A DNA stretch of 64,000 nt from Candidatus Hadarchaeum sp. (GTDB taxonomy: Archaea > Hadarchaeota > Hadarchaeia > Hadarchaeales > Hadarchaeaceae), in contig NZ_JBMFOX010000001.1 of assembly GCF_049969415.1 (NCBI RefSeq), positions 2,405 through 66,404 on the forward strand, in the 5' to 3' direction. The position numbers and the translations under genes were made by a program. The notes under the pieces were generated by a model. It was not told the DNA's origin. It made no database searches and was given only the letters and a program-made list of their open reading frames with translations. Of the stretch, positions 5,191-20,948 are shown one piece after another (within the stretch, counting starts at the first letter, position 1; each line of letters opens with the position of its first letter).

Positions 5191-6474
5191 TCAACTTCGA
5201 GGATCGAGCACGCGCCCCAGGAAGAGAACCGCCCCCGTGCTGGTGTCATGAATCAGGAAGATAAAGGGGTGGTCTAGCGAGACGTTAATCGGCGGAGGCA
5301 AAGTGGCCGTAAGTTCCATGATCACCGCGGTCGCTGCCGCCGCCTCGGTGCCCCTCTCGTCGACGGAAACGAAGGACTTGTGCAGCACCTTGCTAATGAA
5401 CAGCCTGTCGTCAGCCATGCCGGTGAAATCGGCCCGATCGGTGAACGCGGTGGGCATGCCCATCCCGGCGAGCGCGTTCGTCAGGTCGAGCGGAAACTCA
5501 AAGCGGAACTTCGGCATCCTCACTACCACATTCTGCCTCTCCAAACCGCCCACGATCTCGCGCAGACTTTCGACCGTCAGACCGGCCTCAAACTCCTCAA
5601 AACTTTCCGGCAGGATGACCAGCATCGCCACCGAGGTATCCCTGTAGGGCAGCTCGACGGCCTGGTAGCCCTCCCCCTTCGAGTAGCGGATGGATTCACT
5701 CTTGGGCCAGGACATCATCGGCACGGTGACCTGAGAGCCGTCGCGGAGGGTGAAGACGCCATCGGCAGTGAGGTTCTCGGAGAACGGATGTTGCCACATC
5801 GCGTTGAAGTAGATCGCGTTGGTCAGCACCAGCCGGGTGTAGGTGTCGATGGCACCTAGTGGAATCAGGTCCTTTATCTTCTCATTTGTCTGCTCGCCTA
5901 CCCAGTCATTGATCCTGACCCGGGCTGCCTCGGGGTCCCCCTGGAAATCCAAGCCGCGTAATCCGGCCCCGTAGTTCACAGCCAGGACATCCAAGAACTC
6001 CCGCTTGAACTCAAAGCCGATCTGCCCCCAGATCGAGTTGGCGATGTTGAGCCGGAAGTTCTCGCTGTTCTGGGCCATGAGCGCTAAATCCAGTGCGTCG
6101 AAGGCCGGGTGCAGCCTTTCCTGCGGCAGGGTGAAGCGGAGCACCTCGGCCATCTCCTGGGCGGTGGGGCCGCGGGCGCCCGCGTAGGTCATCGCCAGCG
6201 CCAGGGAAATGCTGTAGGGGGAGAAGAACAGGTTGCCCTCAGAGGCCCTGACCCGCTGGTAGAGATCCAGGGCAAAACCGGTGTTGCCTGCTACCAGCTC
6301 CGCGAAATCCTCCCGGGTCACGTTGGGGCTGGTATCGCGGGAGAGTCCGGAATGATAGAATTCCACGCCCGGAGTTCCATAATTTCCCAGTAGGACCACA
6401 CCCAATATGGTCAGAACAACGACGCCAGCGATCACCGCCGCCAGAATGCGGAGCGCAGAGTTACCGAGCTTCAC
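5191..6474 (-). CDS. Serpin-family protease inhibitor with an N-terminal TM/signal anchor
   Basis: Reactive-centre-loop hinge GTEAAAATAVIM and the C-terminal serpin signature PFIFLIHDTSTGAVLFLGRV.DP. N-terminal hydrophobic segment ILAAVIAGVVVLTILGVVLL. Confidence 0.85.
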   Translation of the reverse strand: MKLGNSALRILAAVIAGVVVLTILGVVLLGNYGTPGVEFYHSGLSRDTSPNVTREDFAELVAGNTGFALDLYQRVRASEGNLFFSPYSISLALAMTYAGARGPTAQEMAEVLRFTLPQERLHPAFDALDLALMAQNSENFRLNIANSIWGQIGFEFKREFLDVLAVNYGAGLRGLDFQGDPEAARVRINDWVGEQTNEKIKDLIPLGAIDTYTRLVLTNAIYFNAMWQHPFSENLTADGVFTLRDGSQVTVPMMSWPKSESIRYSKGEGYQAVELPYRDTSVAMLVILPESFEEFEAGLTVESLREIVGGLERQNVVVRMPKFRFEFPLDLTNALAGMGMPTAFTDRADFTGMADDRLFISKVLHKSFVSVDERGTEAAAATAVIMELTATLPPPINVSLDHPFIFLIHDTSTGAVLFLGRVLDPRS

Positions 6475-6565: not shown

Positions 6566-7153
6566 CTACTGACTCTCCTGCTCCGGCTTCTCCTTCTCCT
6601 CAGCGCCTTCAGCCTTCTCCTTCCCAAGCAGCAGCCCCAGCAGCTCCCTCTGGTCCACCTCGGCCATCGCCCGCCAGCCGAGGTAAAGCAAACCCTGTTC
6701 ATCCTCGGAGAGGTAGCCCCGCCTGATGAAGCGGTCAATCGTCGCCTCCACCCGCCAGCGGGGGAACTTCTCCTGGAGGATGCGCTCGACCTCCTTCAGC
6801 GGTGCCTTGCCCCCGCGAGAGAGGATGTGGGCCAGCGCCACGGTGAGCATCGCCATGTCGTCCACCCGCCAGCCGAAGGTCCTAGCGTCGGAAAGCCTGG
6901 GATGCCCACGCAGGGTGATGAAGTAGCGGTCAGACTCCGAGCTCTCTCCCGCCTCGCTGACCCGCTTCACCGCCAGCCCCAGCTTCTCCAGCTCGGCATC
7001 CAGCAGCTTCAAGATCTGCTCGTAGTCGCGACCCAGCGCCCGCCTCAGCTCCCAGGCCTTGGCCCCGGGCTGCATGTGGTGCCTGAAGAAGAGCAGCTGG
7101 GCCGCCCGCGCCAGCTTCTCCCTGAGCTCAACCACGTCCGGGGCCTCAGGCAC
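6566..7153 (-). CDS. ScpB-like tandem winged-helix protein (putative kite subunit)
   Basis: Two wHTH-like repeats and an acidic C-tail. Overlaps the upstream scpA-like gene by 8 nt. Confidence 0.5.
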   Translation of the reverse strand: MPEAPDVVELREKLARAAQLLFFRHHMQPGAKAWELRRALGRDYEQILKLLDAELEKLGLAVKRVSEAGESSESDRYFITLRGHPRLSDARTFGWRVDDMAMLTVALAHILSRGGKAPLKEVERILQEKFPRWRVEATIDRFIRRGYLSEDEQGLLYLGWRAMAEVDQRELLGLLLGKEKAEGAEEKEKPEQESQ

Positions 7154-7937
7154 GCTTCTTCCTCCTCTTCAGCCACTCCTCGCGGCTGATGGCGATGGGC
7201 ACGGAAAATGTCGCCACGTTCTCCAGCACCTGCGGCTTCGGCAGCGGCTTCAGGTTGATCTCCTCCTCGAGCGGGTCGATGTCCAGCGTGGCATAGCCGT
7301 AGCTCACCAGGAAGCTCACCAGCCAGGCCCGAAACACCGTCTCCTCGAAGGTCTTTCCCTGGATGAACCTCCAGTAGGAGATGAACTCCTTCTCCCCAAC
7401 CGCCTCCTTCAGCTCCCTCCAGGTCCGGTCGAGCAGGGCGGTGAGGTCCTCGTCGCTGAGTATCCCCATCCTAGCCAGCTCCCGGCGCGCTATCTCCCCG
7501 GTCATGACCTCGGTGACCTCAAGCTCCTTGAACCTCTCGTCCAGCCCGGGAAGGTTGCGCCAGTAGTCGAGCCCCTCCCGGAGCGCGGGCAGGGAAAGGC
7601 TCTCGAGGTCGATGATCGGATGCCAGGCGCGGACGAGCACCTCGGCCAGATCCTGCGGCTGGAGCGCGTAGAGCTTGAGCGTGATCAGCAGCGGGTCCAA
7701 GTAGAGCAGGGAGGACTTGTGCTTGATCCATTCGCCCTGCTGGAAGATGACGTCGGCCAGCCCGAGCACCGCCTGAACGTCGAGGTAGAGCTCCTCGTTG
7801 GTCTTCAGCTTGGGCAGCAGCTCCCGGAGCCGGTCGAAGAACTCCCGGACCTCGACATCGAAGGGGTCCAGCCCGCTCTTCCTCACCGAGTCGCAGAGCT
7901 CCACGATGCGCTGCAGCAGCTCCTGTCGCTCCGTCAT
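7146..7937 (-). CDS. ScpA-like kleisin
   Basis: N-terminal GLDPFDVEVREFFDRL resembles the ScpA motif (IDPWDIDIVEV.D.FL). The C-terminal winged-helix-like segment is FRAWLVSFLVSYGYATLDID. Abuts the SMC-like gene at 7937/7938. Confidence 0.6.
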   Translation of the reverse strand: MTERQELLQRIVELCDSVRKSGLDPFDVEVREFFDRLRELLPKLKTNEELYLDVQAVLGLADVIFQQGEWIKHKSSLLYLDPLLITLKLYALQPQDLAEVLVRAWHPIIDLESLSLPALREGLDYWRNLPGLDERFKELEVTEVMTGEIARRELARMGILSDEDLTALLDRTWRELKEAVGEKEFISYWRFIQGKTFEETVFRAWLVSFLVSYGYATLDIDPLEEEINLKPLPKPQVLENVATFSVPIAISREEWLKRRKKRA

Positions 7938-9842
7938 CTAGGCCGCCACCTTGACGCTGGACAGTCCAGCTATGTTCTGGACCGTGATCACATTCGGGAC
8001 CCCTTCCACGTTCACCAGCCTGCCGGGGGTGATGATGATGTACTGCGCCTCCTCGTCCTTCATCGAGTTGAGGATTTCGGTCATCATCTGCTCGCGGTTT
8101 CTCGGGTCCATGTGCATCTCGAACTCGTCGATCGCCCGGATCGGTGACTTGATCCGCTGCTGCAGCGCCAGCAGGAAGCACATGATCGCCGTGGTGCGCT
8201 CGCCGCCGCTCTGCGTGTGCGGGTCCAGCACCTGGGGCTCGGCCCCCCTGAAGCCGACGAGCAGCTGCAGCCCCGCCTCGTCGATGTCGTCGGGATTTTC
8301 CAGCCTGACGTCGCCCGTGGCGTTGACCCGCTTCAGGATCTCCTGATACCTCACCCTGACCTCGCGGAGCAGCTTGTTGATTTCACCCTTCCACTTCTGC
8401 CGGCGCAGGTCCAGCTCCTCCAGCGCCCGCCTGCGGTTGGCCGCAGCGACCTCGGCCTTCGCCTGCAGCTCCTTCAGCGTGTTCTGGTAGCTGAGGTACA
8501 TCCGCTCGACATCGGGGGAGACGTCGGCGAGGCTGGCCAGCTGGATGGTGGTCGCCTTCAGCTCGTCCGTGACCTCCTGTGGCTTCCTCTTGGTCTCGAC
8601 CCTTGGCCCGATCTTGCTGGCCTCGGCTTCGGCCTCTTCGAGCTCCCGCCTCGCCTTTCTCAGCTCCGACCTAACCTCGGAGATCTCCTTCTCCAGCAGC
8701 TCGCGCTTGAGTTCGAGCACCGCCCCCCTGACCCGAGCGTTGATGTAGGATTCCTTCGCCCGCTCGCTCTCCTTCTTGACCGCGACCAGCCTAGACCGGG
8801 TCTCCTTCGTCCGCTCCAGGGCCTCCATCGCCGCCCGGTGGGCCCGCGTTAAATCCGACTCAAAACCGGCTAGGATTTCCCGGAACTCATCCCTGACCTT
8901 CTGAAAGCTCTTGCCCAGGCTCTCGAGAATCTTGCCGCGCGCCTCGGCCTCGGCATGCGCCCGCTCCTGCTCGATGAGCCGCTGGTAGGTGGCATCTATC
9001 TCGAAATCAAGCTCCTGCAGCCTCTTCTCCCAGTTCTGCTCCTCCCGATGGCTCCGAAGCCGGTCATCGGCAACCTCCTTCAGCTCACCCTCCAGCTCGT
9101 TCAGCCTCTGCTCCAGGCTGCTCACCGACTCCATCTGTCGGAAGAACTTCGACCAGGCCAGCTCGATCTCAAGCTCGCGCTTCCTTGACCCCAGCTCCTG
9201 CTTTTTCCGGAAGCGCTGGTATTCGCCCTCCCAGTAGCGCAGCGTCTCCTGGGCCTTCTCCAGCAGGCTCTTTATCGCCTCCTCCTCGCTGAGGCTGTGG
9301 GAAAGTTTCTCCCGCGCCTCCAAGATCATGTCCCGGTACTCCTTCAGCCCGACGACCTCCTCCACCACCTTCAGCCTCTCCTTGGCGTCGATGGCCCCGA
9401 AGACATCGATCATGCTCTGGTGCATGATGATGAGCATGTTGTCCGGGTTTATTGACAGCCGGCGCAGCAGGTGCATGACCTCGCCCTTGGTCGAGGCCCG
9501 GGAGTTAATCTCATGCCAGTAGTTCCCGTCCCGGCTCAGATATCGGGAGAGGACGATGGTGTCGGAGTTTATGCTCGCAATCGGCCTTTTCCCGTCCCGC
9601 GGCGAGTTGTCAAAAACAACGCTGACGCGGCCCAGATCCTTGCCCCTCCGGATAAGATCGCTGAGGCGGCGCGAGCGCTCGGTGTAGGTCTGCCCCAGCG
9701 CCACCGCCAGCCCGAGAAGTATCGAGGACTTCCCCGCGCCGTTGGGCCCGACGATGATGTTGAGCCCCGACTTGAGCGGGACCCTCGAGTACTCGTGGGA
9801 CATGAAGTTCTCAAGTATGATCTCCCGGATCAGGGCCGCCAT
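7938..9842 (-). CDS. SMC-like ABC ATPase, hingeless, 634 aa
   Basis: N-terminal Walker A VGPNGAGKSS; C-terminal signature QSGGERT; Walker B/D-loop IRAIDEFEMHMD. About 350 aa of heptad-rich charged central sequence with no Gly-rich hinge and no CxxC hook. Confidence 0.8.
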   Translation of the reverse strand: MAALIREIILENFMSHEYSRVPLKSGLNIIVGPNGAGKSSILLGLAVALGQTYTERSRRLSDLIRRGKDLGRVSVVFDNSPRDGKRPIASINSDTIVLSRYLSRDGNYWHEINSRASTKGEVMHLLRRLSINPDNMLIIMHQSMIDVFGAIDAKERLKVVEEVVGLKEYRDMILEAREKLSHSLSEEEAIKSLLEKAQETLRYWEGEYQRFRKKQELGSRKRELEIELAWSKFFRQMESVSSLEQRLNELEGELKEVADDRLRSHREEQNWEKRLQELDFEIDATYQRLIEQERAHAEAEARGKILESLGKSFQKVRDEFREILAGFESDLTRAHRAAMEALERTKETRSRLVAVKKESERAKESYINARVRGAVLELKRELLEKEISEVRSELRKARRELEEAEAEASKIGPRVETKRKPQEVTDELKATTIQLASLADVSPDVERMYLSYQNTLKELQAKAEVAAANRRRALEELDLRRQKWKGEINKLLREVRVRYQEILKRVNATGDVRLENPDDIDEAGLQLLVGFRGAEPQVLDPHTQSGGERTTAIMCFLLALQQRIKSPIRAIDEFEMHMDPRNREQMMTEILNSMKDEEAQYIIITPGRLVNVEGVPNVITVQNIAGLSSVKVAA

Positions 9843-9913
9843 GGAAATCAGTTAAAACTTGGCAGTTCCTATATAAGACAACGTCTGCGTTTAAATCTTG
9901 GGGGGCAACGGCC

Positions 9914-10618
9914 ATGGTCCTGGTGGCAAAGATCTTCGAGCTGAAGGAGCCGGTTGAGCTGGCCCTCGTCGCGCGCAAGCTCAGGTCCTTCCGTGAGGAG
10001 GAGCCCTACGGTTCGGGCAAGGAGACCAAGAAGCTGACCACCGAGATCCTCGAGCCCAAGCTTGAGGGCGACTCCTTCTCCGCGATCTTCAGCAAGGACT
10101 TCGTCATCAGCCGCTACTACAAGCGGGGCCTGGTCGAAACGGTGGTGACCGAGGAGGTCCCCTTCTGGATCAAGAGGTACAAGGGGCGTCTCTTCCTGAT
10201 CGTGCTCGCGCCCTCGAAGGCCCGGGGGGTGAAGAAGCTGCTGACGAACTACGTGGCCAACCGACTGAGCGACATCATCTTCATTAAAACGGGTGCCATC
10301 GTCGAGACCAAGATCACCCACGAGACGCTGAAGGAGCTCCACGAATCCAACCCGCATGCGACGAAGCTGATCTGGTTCGACAACGTGGACATCCCGGGCG
10401 TGGGCAAGCTGGCCTTGGCGGGATCGGGTCTGGCGGACACCAATCTCTACCGCGAATATCTGGAGCACGGAAAGCTGTGGTATGTGGTCTGGGAGGTGGC
10501 CAAGCGGGGCCTGGTCGTGGGAGTCACCAGAAACGTTGTGGTCACCCTCTTCAGCAGGTCCACGGTCCAGGAGTTCATCGACTTCATCATGGCCGAGATA
10601 CTCCCCATCATCGAGTGA
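9914..10618 (+). CDS. Hypothetical protein, 234 aa, divergent from the SMC-like operon
   Basis: Clean ORF with coding-like composition. No motif recognised. Confidence 0.45.
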   Translation: MVLVAKIFELKEPVELALVARKLRSFREEEPYGSGKETKKLTTEILEPKLEGDSFSAIFSKDFVISRYYKRGLVETVVTEEVPFWIKRYKGRLFLIVLAPSKARGVKKLLTNYVANRLSDIIFIKTGAIVETKITHETLKELHESNPHATKLIWFDNVDIPGVGKLALAGSGLADTNLYREYLEHGKLWYVVWEVAKRGLVVGVTRNVVVTLFSRSTVQEFIDFIMAEILPIIE

Positions 10619-10621
10619 AAA

Positions 10622-11251
10622 CTATCGGCTCTTCGGCCGCGTGAAGCTGCGACAGTATTTTCCCAGAGGGCAGCTGACGCATTTCCTCCGCTTGCAGTAT
10701 TCCAGATGGATCCTGATCAAGGCCGATTCAAACCGCTGGACCTGGTAACGGGTAAGCGCCAGGCTCTCGCCCAGCCGCAGGGCCACCGGAGATGGGCTGG
10801 GCTTCGCCTTGGGCCAGATTCCACGCAGCTCCCGCAGGAAGATGTTGCAGGCAACCGGGCCCACCCCCTTCAGCTCCTGAAGCCTCCGCTCCAGATCTCG
10901 CGCATTCTCGGCAGTCTGGTGCAGGCGTTCGAGGCCGCCCCGAGATTGGATTCTGCCCACGGTGTCGAGAATCGTCGAGGCCGTGGAAAAGTCGTAACGC
11001 ACATAACCCGCCGCGTCCAGCACCTCAACCAGCCTGTCCCAGCCCGCGGCCAGAATCGCCTCCGGAGTCACCAGACCCTCGGCCTCAAACATTTGATAGG
11101 TCTTCTTGGCCACGTTTGCGGAAATCCTTTTGGCGAAGAGCAGCGAGGCCAGAAACCACTTGAAACGGTCCTCCGGTTTCCTGAGGTCCAGACCCAGCTC
11201 GCGCGAATAGCTCGGAATCTTGGACAACACCTGAAGGCCGCCGGACATCAT
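10622..11251 (-). CDS. HhH-GPD superfamily base-excision repair protein (endonuclease III-like, with a C-terminal Cys cluster)
   Basis: Helix-hairpin-helix LQELKGVGPVACNIFLREL and C-terminal C-x4-C-x2-C-x5-C. The catalytic Asp is not evident. Confidence 0.55.
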   Translation of the reverse strand: MMSGGLQVLSKIPSYSRELGLDLRKPEDRFKWFLASLLFAKRISANVAKKTYQMFEAEGLVTPEAILAAGWDRLVEVLDAAGYVRYDFSTASTILDTVGRIQSRGGLERLHQTAENARDLERRLQELKGVGPVACNIFLRELRGIWPKAKPSPSPVALRLGESLALTRYQVQRFESALIRIHLEYCKRRKCVSCPLGKYCRSFTRPKSR

Positions 11252-11768: not shown

Positions 11769-12176
11769 TTGATTGGGATTGAAACGAAAGACTCATCCGC
11801 GCTATCAAAAATAAAAATCTACCCTGAAGCTCCTGCGTTACCCTTCGATGTCATCGGGCCCGTCCAAGCTAGGGTCCACGCCGCCACAGCCCTCTCACCG
11901 GAACCAACGCTGGACGAAGTGAACCAGAAGCTGAGGGAGAAGGCCCTGAAGATGGGGGCGAACGCCGTAATCAATGTGGAATACAAGCGACAGAAGCTCA
12001 CGCTGACGGCCTGGAAGGTCCTCACCGCCAAGGGTCAAGCGGTAATCATCAAGGAGGGTGAAAAGAAGCCCGAGGCGGCGCTGATCCTCGCCATTTGTCC
12101 CGAGTGCCACGAAAGGATTCCGCTGGACTCTAAATTCTGCCCGGAATGCGGGACCCGCCTGAAGCCCAAGAAATAG
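11769..12176 (+). CDS. YbjQ/UPF0145-like domain protein with a C-terminal zinc ribbon
   Basis: LREKALKMGANAVINVEYK...TAKGQAVII resembles the YbjQ core. C-terminal CPECHERIPLDSKFCPECGTRLKP. Confidence 0.55.
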   Translation: MIGIETKDSSALSKIKIYPEAPALPFDVIGPVQARVHAATALSPEPTLDEVNQKLREKALKMGANAVINVEYKRQKLTLTAWKVLTAKGQAVIIKEGEKKPEAALILAICPECHERIPLDSKFCPECGTRLKPKK

Positions 12177-12243: not shown

Positions 12244-13821
12244 ATGAAAAAAGTACTGGTCACCTTAATCTGTTTAACGCTCATCGCCGTGCTGGTGGGA
12301 TCGACGGCGCCTCCCGTGGCGGCCGCCGAAGAGGGCCTGTCGCTCACCGCTGAGTACACGCTGCGGTACCAAATCCAGCTGCCTTACCAAGGAACCTACT
12401 ATCCGGGCAGGACTTCCATCCGCGTGGAAATATACGACATCCCGATATCCTCCGACCGTCAGAAGGTCCAGGCGACGCTGGATCAGGGCAGCATCCAGAC
12501 CATCAACGGCAGGGACGTCTGGGTCATCGAGACGACAACCATTTATACCAACAACATCTTCACCGGCACCTTCGTGGTCACCGTGGATCTGACAAACACC
12601 GCCGCCGTGCCGCACCAGCCCCTGCCGACCGCGGTGGACGAGGAGGTGGCGCAATACCTCCAGCCCGACGAATACGTCACCGTTTCCGCCGAGGTGGCCA
12701 ACCAAGCGCTGCAGCTGGTGGGCGAGGCCGGCAACGATGTCCCGAAAATCATCGCCAAGTTCGTCGATTGGATCAAGAAAAATGTCACCTACGACGAGGC
12801 CAAGTGGGCGGCGAGGCTTTCCGGAGCCAAGATCTCCGACCTGACCGACAATGAAATGCTGATGGTTCGCTCCGGCGTCTGCACCGACTACGCCAACCTG
12901 TTCCTAGGCTTCTGCCGGGCTGTGGGCCTTCCGGCACGGAGTGTTTTGGGATATGGCTTGAGGAGTGAGGAAAAGGACCTCTACCAAGAGATCCAGAGCG
13001 CGACGAGCCACGCCTGGGTCGAGGTCTGGATTCCGAACTACGGATGGCTAACGGTGGACCCCACCTGGGGAGACATCGGCGACGTGCGCAAGATCATCAC
13101 TGCCAAGACCCGTGAAGAGGGCTGGCACTACTGGTACCAGGATGTTCCACCTGGCTCCGGGATAACGGCCTCGGGCGTCAAGTACAGCATCGTCCTCACC
13201 GGCTGGGAAGTCGTCAACAAGGTCACCCCGGTAGCGCTGGCGCTGGGTGAAGCGGGCAACGAGCTGAACTTCAACCTCACCAACATCTCGCCCATACCCT
13301 TCTTGGACAACGTCCTCATCAGAAGTTGCCTCTGGCAGGACGGGACTTGGTCGGAATGGTCTGATGTCTCCAGTGAGATAATATTTCTCAACCCCCAGGA
13401 AACCTACACCTACCGCGCTGCCAAGGAGAGCGGCGTAGGCTACCACGTCTGGTCCAGGATGGCCGAGAACGGGCTGGTGAACTGGCAGTATCCCCAAACC
13501 ACTACCACCTACACCACCACGCCGCAGGAAACCACCCCAACCGGACCCTCGATTCCCACGGAGCTGACGGAGATGCTGCCCTTCGTCGTGGTGATAGTAA
13601 TCATGGCGATCTTGGGCGCGATAGCGTCGACCCGAAGAAGGAGAGCGCTACCTCGCCAGAAACCGACTGCAACTCCGGAGCCCGAACCAGAAGCTGCCAC
13701 CGCGCCGGAGCCGACACGGGCGCTGGCAATCTGCCCCAAATGCAACGCGCGGGTTCCCGCAGAGGCAAAGTTCTGCACCGAATGCGGCGCCGACCTGAAG
13801 CCGAGAAAGCGCAGGACCTGA
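12244..13821 (+). CDS. Transglutaminase-like cysteine protease domain protein. Signal peptide, extracellular domain, Thr-rich linker, TM helix, cytoplasmic zinc ribbon
   Basis: Cys/His/Asp triad context GVCTDYANLF...SHAWVEVW...GWLTVDPTWGD. C-terminal CPKCNARVPAEAKFCTECGADLKP. Confidence 0.7.
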   Translation: MKKVLVTLICLTLIAVLVGSTAPPVAAAEEGLSLTAEYTLRYQIQLPYQGTYYPGRTSIRVEIYDIPISSDRQKVQATLDQGSIQTINGRDVWVIETTTIYTNNIFTGTFVVTVDLTNTAAVPHQPLPTAVDEEVAQYLQPDEYVTVSAEVANQALQLVGEAGNDVPKIIAKFVDWIKKNVTYDEAKWAARLSGAKISDLTDNEMLMVRSGVCTDYANLFLGFCRAVGLPARSVLGYGLRSEEKDLYQEIQSATSHAWVEVWIPNYGWLTVDPTWGDIGDVRKIITAKTREEGWHYWYQDVPPGSGITASGVKYSIVLTGWEVVNKVTPVALALGEAGNELNFNLTNISPIPFLDNVLIRSCLWQDGTWSEWSDVSSEIIFLNPQETYTYRAAKESGVGYHVWSRMAENGLVNWQYPQTTTTYTTTPQETTPTGPSIPTELTEMLPFVVVIVIMAILGAIASTRRRRALPRQKPTATPEPEPEAATAPEPTRALAICPKCNARVPAEAKFCTECGADLKPRKRRT

Positions 13822-20778: not shown

Positions 20779-20828
20779 AATCGGGACCAAAAAAGGCTTA
20801 AGGATTTGACAGGAAAAATCTCTATGAG

Positions 20829-20948
20829 CCGGGGTAGCTCAGCTGGTCAGAGCGCGAGACTCATAGCTTCAACCGCAGCTGTGAGTGCTGAACTACGGGA
20901 TGATGTAGGAAATCTCGAGGCCGCGGGTTCAATTCCCGCCCCCGGCAC
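20829..20948 (+). tRNA. tRNA with anticodon CAU (elongator Met or agmatidine-type Ile2), with a 46-nt intron (20867-20912) at the canonical 37/38 site
   Basis: Hand-folded: acceptor GCCGGGG/CCCCGGC (G1-C72, so not an initiator); D-arm GCTC/GAGC; anticodon stem CGAGA/TCTCG with loop CTCATA interrupted after A37; T-arm GCGGG-TTCAATT-CCCGC; discriminator A. Confidence 0.75.

Follow-up and report, generated by a model that had tools for sequence, protein, structure and literature searches.

The 64,000-nucleotide stretch of DNA from Candidatus Hadarchaeum sp. analysed here (the window) contains a gene for an SMC-like ATPase of 634 amino acids followed by two smaller genes, and it raises the question of whether a complete SMC–kleisin–kite set can exist without a hinge—an element regarded as defining and essential for SMCs, responsible for dimerisation, ring closure and the DNA gate—and to which family such a set belongs. 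A sequence-only reading had described three genes in a tight operon, and this arrangement, on the minus strand, is confirmed by the ORF coordinates and both junction sequences. The gene of the short SMC (7938–9842, minus strand) ends with a TAG stop codon directly followed by the ATG of the 263-aa kleisin (7146–7937, minus strand; junction at 7938/7937), and the gene of the 195-aa kite (6566–7153, minus strand) begins with a GTG in an 8-nt overlap with the end of the kleisin gene (GTGCCTGA at 7146–7153); the three genes are predicted to be co-transcribed. A fourth gene, coding for a protein of 234 residues from no known family (DIV234; 9914–10618, plus strand), is divergent from the SMC gene. 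The 71-nt intergenic region between them (9843–9913) carries, as read from the sequence, two back-to-back TATA-like boxes, TTATATA at 9870–9877 (minus strand) and TTTAAAT at 9891–9897, which, judging from their spacing to both start codons, are putative promoters.

Concerning the ATPase, it does not represent a chance ORF, because it is matched by the Pfam model SMC_N with an E-value of 3.7e-32 over residues 5–605. This match, together with the Walker A, signature and Walker B motifs present in the translation, upholds the description of an ABC ATPase with an SMC-type head; all the motifs quoted in that reading (VGPNGAGKSS, QSGGERT, IRAIDEFEMHMD and GLDPFDVEVREFFDRL) were found in translation. 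In the AlphaFold2 model (40-sequence alignment, mean pLDDT 78.9) the N-terminal part of the head spans residues ~1–165 and the C-terminal one ~506–634, i.e. the protein possesses the split ABC-type head with SMC-type fold of an SMC sensu stricto. The signature reads HTQSGGER, and the Walker B pair D572–E573 is invariant in the family alignment. There is also an 'ITP' of the Smc5 type, at the position occupied in canonical SMCs by the H-loop histidine. The best Foldseek matches of the model are the yeast Smc5/6 chains, and the family profile (A3) found in the PDB Smc5 at 7e-41, SMC6 at 1e-36 and the Pyrococcus Smc at 4e-29, SMC proteins ranking in both searches far above Rad50. In a search of 1.84 billion proteins, the named matches below the archaeal family were eukaryotic SMC5 proteins of ~1000–1190 aa. 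By these comparisons, the head appears closer to Smc5/Smc6 than to the canonical SMC.

The SMC sensu stricto has arms of ~300–350 residues (~50 nm) and, at the coiled-coil apex, a globular hinge for dimerisation. The protein studied here has neither the hinge domain nor the long arms. Its AlphaFold2 model consists of the head and a single antiparallel coiled-coil hairpin formed by the helices 167–316 and 321–505, with the apex reduced to the four-residue loop 317–320 and no globular middle domain; the arm is ~150 residues (~22 nm) long, and its C-terminal helix exhibits joint-like breaks at residues 412–420 and 438–443. The Pfam model SMC_hinge gave no match in the 634-aa protein at E<=1, and the translated arm contains no cysteine, and hence no CxxC motif, so that the earlier claim of a missing hinge and missing zinc hook is borne out by profile search, predicted topology and composition alike. 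The tip of the hairpin is variable and motif-free: along the alignment, conservation is high in the head and neck and lowest in the segment 301–340, where ~45% of the positions are gaps. Residues 14–330 and 320–634 align, respectively, to residues 1–321 and 719–1034 of a 1047-aa relative, and this two-block alignment places the missing ~400 residues precisely at the apex. The subunit is thus an SMC without a hinge and without the distal half of the arms.

An SMC of half the usual length could have resulted from a mis-assembled or internally deleted smc gene, or from a decaying pseudogene, the former having been named in the sequence-only reading as what would overturn it. The best 120 cluster representatives, coming from independent assemblies, are mostly 620–650 aa long and share 57–92% identity with the short SMC, and relatives of 548–681 aa from several archaeal phyla align with it end to end. 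Since the same length is kept in more than 100 independent assemblies as well as across phyla, the explanation by an artefact is already refuted; moreover, the reading frames are uninterrupted and show translational coupling, and strong purifying selection acts on the heads. Its remaining probability is negligible.

The two partners had been labelled ScpA-like kleisin and ScpB-like kite, and this part of the interpretation has to be corrected. Neither ScpA (PF02616) nor ScpB (PF04079) was matched at E<=1 among 21 kleisin and 19 kite family members, and ScpB was also absent from the PDB profile searches at E<=10. The kleisin profile (A1) found in the PDB EID3 (3.4e-6) and yeast Nse4 (5e-3) over residues ~136–259, and Nse4_C was matched by all 21 kleisin family members; these matches back the C-terminal winged helix, the N-terminal helical region being strongly conserved in the family alignment. 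The profile searches with the kite identified MAGE/Nse3 and Nse1, and its AlphaFold2 model has two winged helices in tandem and an acidic tail that is disordered, much as the third gene had been described; the winged helices of MukF and JetA were among the matches of the fold search. The earlier interpretation is therefore retained as far as an SMC–kleisin–kite set without a hinge is concerned, whereas its assignment to ScpAB gives way to an SMC5/6-related one.

With the ATPase matching best Smc5/Smc6, the adjoining kleisin Nse4/EID3 and the adjoining kite MAGE/Nse3 and Nse1, the locus belongs to the archaeal operons published as "SMC5/6-related" (Yoshinaga and Inagaki 2021, PMC8665677; van Hooff et al., preprint, 10.1101/2024.01.07.573240), with which it shares the Smc5/6 head affinity, the gene order SMC–kleisin–kite, the Nse4-related kleisin and the Nse1/3-related kite, and where it is best filed. 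Those operons were described from TACK lineages and a few euryarchaea, including a Hadesarchaeon, a taxonomic range that agrees with the one seen here. It should be noted that in both studies the coiled coils were removed before tree building; the texts of neither mention the short length or the hinge loss, nor do they describe a fourth gene. For the Hadarchaeum genome, Supplementary Table 3 of the preprint records neither an SMC nor a kleisin, both of which were thus apparently missed. For all three proteins, the best matches in the PDB, by sequence and by fold, are to the eukaryotic Smc5/6 complex with Nse4 and Nse1–Nse3, which also shares with the short SMC the head motifs HTQSGGER and QY..ITP. 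It differs in being a Smc5–Smc6 heterodimer, the archaeal complex presumably being a homodimer; in having two kites, whereas the archaeal locus has one kite gene without the Nse1 RING region; and in possessing the hinge and the ~400 arm residues missing here. No match to Nse2, Nse5 or Nse6 surfaced, in an untargeted way, among the genes examined.

Other families with similar features fit less well. The Smc–ScpAB condensin has the SMC–kleisin–kite architecture and operon logic in common with the locus, but its arms measure ~47–50 nm versus ~22 nm, and membership was rejected owing to the lack of ScpA, ScpB and a hinge and to the NCBIfam scores: TIGR02169, the top NCBIfam match on the SMC heads, reached 181 bits against a cut-off of 729, and TIGR02168 reached 114 bits against 567. 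The archaea-specific SMC-related proteins (ASRPs: ClsN/coalescin, Sph1/2 and arcadin-4) and Rad50 are, like the short SMC, archaeal head–rod–tail ATPases of ~600–900 aa without an SMC hinge; most of them carry, however, a CxxC zinc hook, and we know of no kleisin–kite partners for them. With 54 bits for the ASRP model NF045487 (cut-off 300) and 63 bits for the Rad50 models (cut-offs 700–1000), membership in the Rad50, ASRP, arcadin and RecF groups was rejected on the curated cut-offs and the missing hook. MukBEF and Wadjet (JetABCD) also combine an SMC, a kleisin and a kite with an extra partner, but their SMCs are long and have hinges, and JetD is a nuclease of the Toprim type; the best 25 PADLOC matches included no Jet or Muk model.

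The best PADLOC matches deserve attention, since the ATPase was recognised by the models of LmuB (1e-21) and mad3 (1e-23), raising a defence system of the Lamassu, Wadjet or MADS kind. If the locus were an SMC-based immune system like Lamassu or Wadjet, foreign DNA would be sensed by the short SMC, with DIV234 as the effector. The size and arm length do resemble those of LmuB (~650 aa, ~20 nm), which has no SMC hinge either, a fourth gene of no assigned function is present, and eukaryotic Smc5/6 restricts episomal DNA (PMC10586767). LmuB is, however, Rad50-like, often has a zinc hook, usually carries the Walker B E-to-Q substitution (PMC10586767) and works with the effector LmuA, whereas the short SMC combines an SMC5/6-like head with an intact DE pair and no hook, and its partners—not matched by any PADLOC model—are of the kleisin and kite kinds instead of being LmuA/LmuC or JetD. 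Membership in Lamassu thus failed on the PADLOC-negative neighbours, the invariant D572–E573 and the CxxC-free arm. Furthermore, the gene order and orientation are the same throughout the Hadarchaeales loci examined, where identity is high, unlike in patchy defence islands; the kleisin has no match in the viral contigs of IMG/VR; and DIV234 matches no nuclease or toxin profile. A role in immunity is accordingly rated as quite unlikely.

As to DIV234 itself, it was found upstream of and divergent from the short SMC in 24 of the 30 loci with a 10-kb upstream flank, which substantiates the suggestion that this gene may belong to the module; it stands likewise beside the SMC in other Hadarchaeales and shares 46% identity with the equivalent divergent gene in a korarchaeote. 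No match to it came from Pfam, NCBIfam, PADLOC or PHROGs, nor from two profile searches of PDB sequences, and comparison with the kleisin and kite families by hhalign yielded no identification. In the few loci examined, it was linked to short SMCs and was not found beside two hinge-bearing and two zinc-hook relatives. DIV234 is a new candidate SMC partner.

The triad of SMC, kleisin and kite was present in 45 loci, the kleisin following the SMC directly in 45 loci, and among the taxa that the records name are Hadarchaeales, Korarchaeota, Bathyarchaeia, Methanomethylicia and Thermofilales. The short SMC alone was also found in MAGs carrying the labels Nitrososphaeria, Thermoprotei, Culexmicrobium and Halobacteria, whose counterparts for the kleisin are MAGs of MSBL1 and Geothermarchaeales. 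A contig scan saturated by the Walker A pattern gave 16 loci, named TACK loci among them and none from Hadarchaeota. The identity of the kite among Hadarchaeales (65–100%), the absence of the kleisin from viral contigs and an Nse1/3-related kite recorded in all four Hadarchaeales genomes of the preprint's table support a housekeeping character of the complex. An Lhr-type helicase lies within a few kilobases in 13 of 47 triad loci, one Hadarchaeales locus included, and this recurrent neighbour supports a repair context.

The same table (10.1101/2024.01.07.573240, Supplementary Table 3) bears on the possibility that the complex is the main chromosome organiser, substituting for condensin and extruding or bridging DNA with its short arms after dimerisation via the tips, arm zipping or DIV234. 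No condensin- or cohesin-related SMC is recorded in three of the four Hadarchaeales genomes (one of them Hadarchaeum), which suggests that the canonical smc is absent in most Hadarchaeales MAGs; the kite record in the four genomes, the very high sequence conservation within Hadarchaeales and the lack of any other SMC gene in the 64-kb window point in the same direction. On the other hand, the absence of an SMC from a MAG may reflect incompleteness, a ScpB-like kite is recorded in all five Hadarchaeota genomes of the table, and the Hadarchaeales genome WYZ-LMO6 has both operon types. Within the SMC, moreover, conservation is lowest and indels are most frequent at the tip, which has no hook or hinge, and the family is Smc5/6-like, not condensin-like. 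On balance, an organiser of this kind is unlikely.

The reading preferred here, and considered probable, is that the locus encodes a four-component SMC5/6-related complex which has lost the hinge and the distal half of its arms and acts in genome maintenance by clamping or sensing DNA. All the clamp parts of the yeast Smc5/6 type would have been kept, only the hinge and distal arms being gone. Upon ATP binding, the heads of two SMC protomers would engage, the kleisin would link one protomer's neck to the other's cap, the kite homodimer would be seated on the kleisin, and the heads, kleisin and kite together would clamp double-stranded DNA atop the heads, as in the yeast Smc5/6 head module. With no hinge, the SMC pair would be held only by head engagement, the kleisin–kite bridge, arm zipping or possibly DIV234; a clamp or sensor of repair, replication or recombination intermediates is therefore more likely than a long-range loop extruder. 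We thus infer that the complex is a minimal clamp on DNA, gated by ATP, with a role in maintaining the genome.

The short form appears to be derived, because its hinge-bearing relatives P0422 (982 aa) and P0434 (928 aa) are followed by homologous genes for kleisin and kite and lie next to the short-SMC clade in the tree; judging from these sequences, the most likely origin of the short SMC is an ancestor that had a hinge and the same partners. A broader view, put forward as tentative and rather doubtful, is that hingeless SMC–kleisin–kite sets could predominate among the archaeal complexes most closely related to eukaryotic Smc5/6, working without a closed SMC lumen, with DIV234 as a new class of accessory subunit—a dimerisation factor, a tip- or neck-binding factor or a loader—accompanying the short form.

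A hingeless SMC with the full kleisin–kite set, conserved in several archaeal phyla, offers a natural test of the need for a hinge, and a natural experiment on what the head–neck–kleisin–kite module can do alone; as the family adjoins eukaryotic Smc5/6, it also bears on the ancestral activity of the Smc5/6 type. The complex is small (634 + 263 + 195 + 234 aa) and, as hot-spring assemblies of Hadarchaeum contain close relatives, possibly thermostable, a property that, if true, would suit cryo-EM and single-molecule work.

The locus represents the known archaeal SMC5/6-related system in a hingeless form. It comprises three minus-strand genes—those for a short SMC ATPase of 634 aa (7938-9842), a kleisin of 263 aa (7146-7937) and a kite protein of 195 aa (6566-7153)—and, divergent from the SMC gene, a fourth one of 234 aa (9914-10618). 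The positions of the three reading frames and their tight coupling, as described in the sequence-only reading, are exact: the SMC stop codon TAG directly abuts the kleisin start ATG, and the kite gene begins with GTG, overlapping the kleisin stop by 8 nt. The spacer between the genes for the SMC and the 234-aa protein is 71 nt and contains two TATA-like boxes. The Walker A, signature and Walker B motifs reported earlier are found in the 634-aa translation, which matches Pfam SMC_N over residues 5-605 (3.7e-32).

The absence of a hinge, also claimed from sequence alone, holds by several routes. The SMC_hinge profile gave no match at E<=1 in the 634-aa protein, and there is no cysteine in its arm. 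The AlphaFold2 model (built from 40 aligned family sequences; mean pLDDT 78.9, mostly 85-92 in the arms) is a single antiparallel hairpin: a 4-residue loop joins helices 167-316 and 321-505, the second of which is interrupted by two joint-like breaks. In a 1047-aa relative, the counterparts of residues 14-330 and 320-634 are residues 1-321 and 719-1034 (~43% identity), so that the ~400 missing residues are exactly the distal arms and the apex. Each arm has ~150 residues, equivalent to ~22 nm, about half of a normal SMC arm. In the family alignment, conservation is strong in the heads and the head-proximal neck; the tip (residues 301-340) exhibits the lowest identity and ~45% gaps, the length variation being concentrated there. 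An assembly artefact as the source of the short SMC is ruled out by the recurring length: the best 120 database clusters, all of them from assemblies of the Hadarchaeales type, mostly have lengths of 620-650 aa, with identities of 57-92%, and a search of 1.84 billion representatives gave a bimodal picture: 53 clusters of 548-681 aa align over their full length, whereas the closely related long forms, of 928-1047 aa, number only five.

Concerning the identity of the ATPase, its family profile matches Smc5 (yeast 7e-41, human 3e-37) and Smc6 (yeast 1e-36, human 3e-35) ahead of the Pyrococcus Smc (4e-29), with Rad50 (1e-9) far below all of them. The motifs HTQSGGER and QY..ITP are common to the short SMC and Smc5, Smc5/6 chains rank first in Foldseek, and outside the archaeal family the named best library matches are eukaryotic SMC5 and a hinge-bearing Asgard (Freyarchaeum) SMC. 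The partners point the same way. Pfam Nse4_C matches all 21 sampled members of the kleisin family (best 4e-7), and ScpA none of them; in the PDB, the matches to the kleisin family profile include human EID3 (3.4e-6), which is a paralogue of Nse4, and yeast Nse4 itself (5e-3). Among 19 members of the kite family, MAGE (the Nse3 fold) is matched by 15, SMC_Nse1 by six and ScpB by none, and the top PDB match of a broader cross-phylum kite profile is a MAGE/Nse3 chain (E 0.012); these kite signals, each individually weak, mutually agree on MAGE/Nse3 and Nse1. The ScpA-like and ScpB-like labels given previously to the two partners are therefore rejected; the sequence-only observation as such is confirmed, and the interpretation that went with it is right in part.

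The origin of the short form is illuminated by its long relatives. Two of them, P0422 (982 aa) and P0434 (928 aa), bear a hinge, the middle region of P0422 matching an SMC_hinge-containing protein at 5e-12. At both loci the next gene encodes a kleisin homologous to that of the window (27-28% identity), followed by a small gene in the kite position, its match to the window kite being 33% at the P0422 locus and marginal (E 0.03) at the P0434 locus. A rough neighbour-joining tree of heads places the two next to the short clade, a picture consistent with one ancestral SMC5/6-like operon from which the hinge was subsequently lost. Three relatives from Bathyarchaeia, of ~1016-1047 aa (P0377, P0383 and P0390; L001:2105-5248, L002:6001-9087) share 40-44% identity with the short SMC in the head and proximal arm, and carry a conserved midpoint motif, C-[DE]-[KR]-C-G-S, that resembles a zinc hook. 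Neither a kleisin nor a kite gene neighbours them in the two loci examined; the rough tree puts these proteins within the short clade or adjacent to it, which tentatively suggests a secondary re-extension of the hingeless SMC in a paralogue.

The gene-neighbourhood survey proposed along with the sequence-only reading revealed the order short SMC-kleisin-kite in 45 loci at the first count and in two further Hadarchaeales loci added afterwards (47 in total), the taxa named in their records including Hadarchaeales, Korarchaeota, Bathyarchaeia, Methanomethylicia and Thermofilales. Two exceptions were seen: a lone SMC of Nitrososphaeria (L005:5424-7349; 53% identical), with an MFS transporter next instead of kleisin and kite, and a kleisin-kite pair without an SMC immediately upstream (L092:19024-20351). 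The earlier guess that the divergent gene may belong here proved right, the 234-aa gene being a genuine, previously undescribed fourth member of the module. Its product is 46% identical to that of the equivalent divergent korarchaeote gene and 71-74% identical to those of other Hadarchaeales with the adjacency kept. With the gene as anchor of a metagenome scan, 24 of the 30 loci having 10 kb of its upstream flank contain an upstream short SMC on the opposite strand, at 69 nt to 7.7 kb, and on every contig that reaches far enough the kleisin and kite come next. Searches of Pfam, NCBIfam, PADLOC, PHROGs and PDB sequences gave no match for the protein, which is unrelated to either the kleisin or the kite family. 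Homologues of 62-69% identity at L025-L034 and L038, with no SMC, kleisin or kite within 5-10 kb of flank, may be either paralogues or members of a lineage with a rearrangement.

A defence role of the Lamassu/Wadjet type is unlikely, since the synteny of the module is stable, PADLOC matches none of the partners, the kleisin was not found in viral contigs and Walker B is intact, unlike in typical LmuB. In yeast Smc5/6, the DNA clamp involves the heads, neck, Nse4 kleisin and kite subunits. The retention of all these clamp-forming parts—heads, neck, Nse4-like kleisin and kite—in the window complex is the ground on which an ATP-gated DNA clamp is proposed as its putative mechanism; a DNA clamp of yeast Smc5/6 is reported in a cryo-EM study (PMC9191643). 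The stoichiometry is presumed to be 2:1:2; head engagement and the kleisin-kite bridge would keep the two SMCs in contact, possibly aided by arm zipping or the 234-aa protein.

The lineage corresponds to the "SMC5/6-related aSMC" of Yoshinaga & Inagaki (PMC8665677), and van Hooff et al. (10.1101/2024.01.07.573240) describe it in the form of SMC5/6-related SMC-kleisin-kite operons. Neither text mentions the short length or the hinge loss, and in both studies the coiled coils were stripped before phylogeny; nothing on hingeless SMC5/6-like proteins from archaea was found in the further literature covered, which is incomplete. Supplementary Table 3 of van Hooff et al. records an Nse1/3-related kite for the Hadarchaeum genome and no SMC or kleisin, so those of the window were apparently missed. 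The same table records no canonical SMC in three of four Hadarchaeales MAGs, which leaves some probability for a rival reading, less likely than the clamp, in which the short SMC complex would be the cell's sole chromosome organiser.

The neighbourhood hints weakly at DNA repair. A large helicase of the Lhr type (DEAD, Helicase_C, WHD_Lhr and DEAD_assoc domains), a type with a role in repair, is found no more than a few kb from the triad in 13 of the 47 loci (L003/L004, L009, L013, L037, L044, L046, L054, L055, L075, L100, L103, L106), covering several lineages and including a Hadarchaeales locus; none is present within the window. The second hint is a 209-aa gene (10622-11251, minus strand), convergent with the 234-aa gene across a 3-nt gap and conserved in the same place at L023 and L024, the two Hadarchaeum loci closest to this one. 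Its product has an LKGVGP segment like that of a helix-hairpin-helix, and near the C-terminus a cluster of four cysteines weakly resembling the MutY Fe-S loop (E 0.42; MutY/EndoIII-like); it is possibly a small protein of the DNA glycosylase type.

Elsewhere in the window, the kite gene is adjoined on its downstream side by the gene for a full-length serpin (5191-6474, minus strand; Pfam Serpin 1.2e-114), here in an archaeon; the protein has a hydrophobic stretch at its N-terminus. An archaeal RNase P RNA is also present, as is a tRNA spanning 120 nt (20828-20947, plus strand) called by Rfam (62.6 bits) and not by ARAGORN, consistent with an intron-containing archaeal tRNA. Two neighbouring plus-strand genes (11769-12176 and 12244-13821) encode products with similar C-termini, each a double CxxC zinc-ribbon with a basic tail after it: CPECHERIPLDSKFCPECGTRLKPKK and CPKCNARVPAEAKFCTECGADLKPRKRRT.
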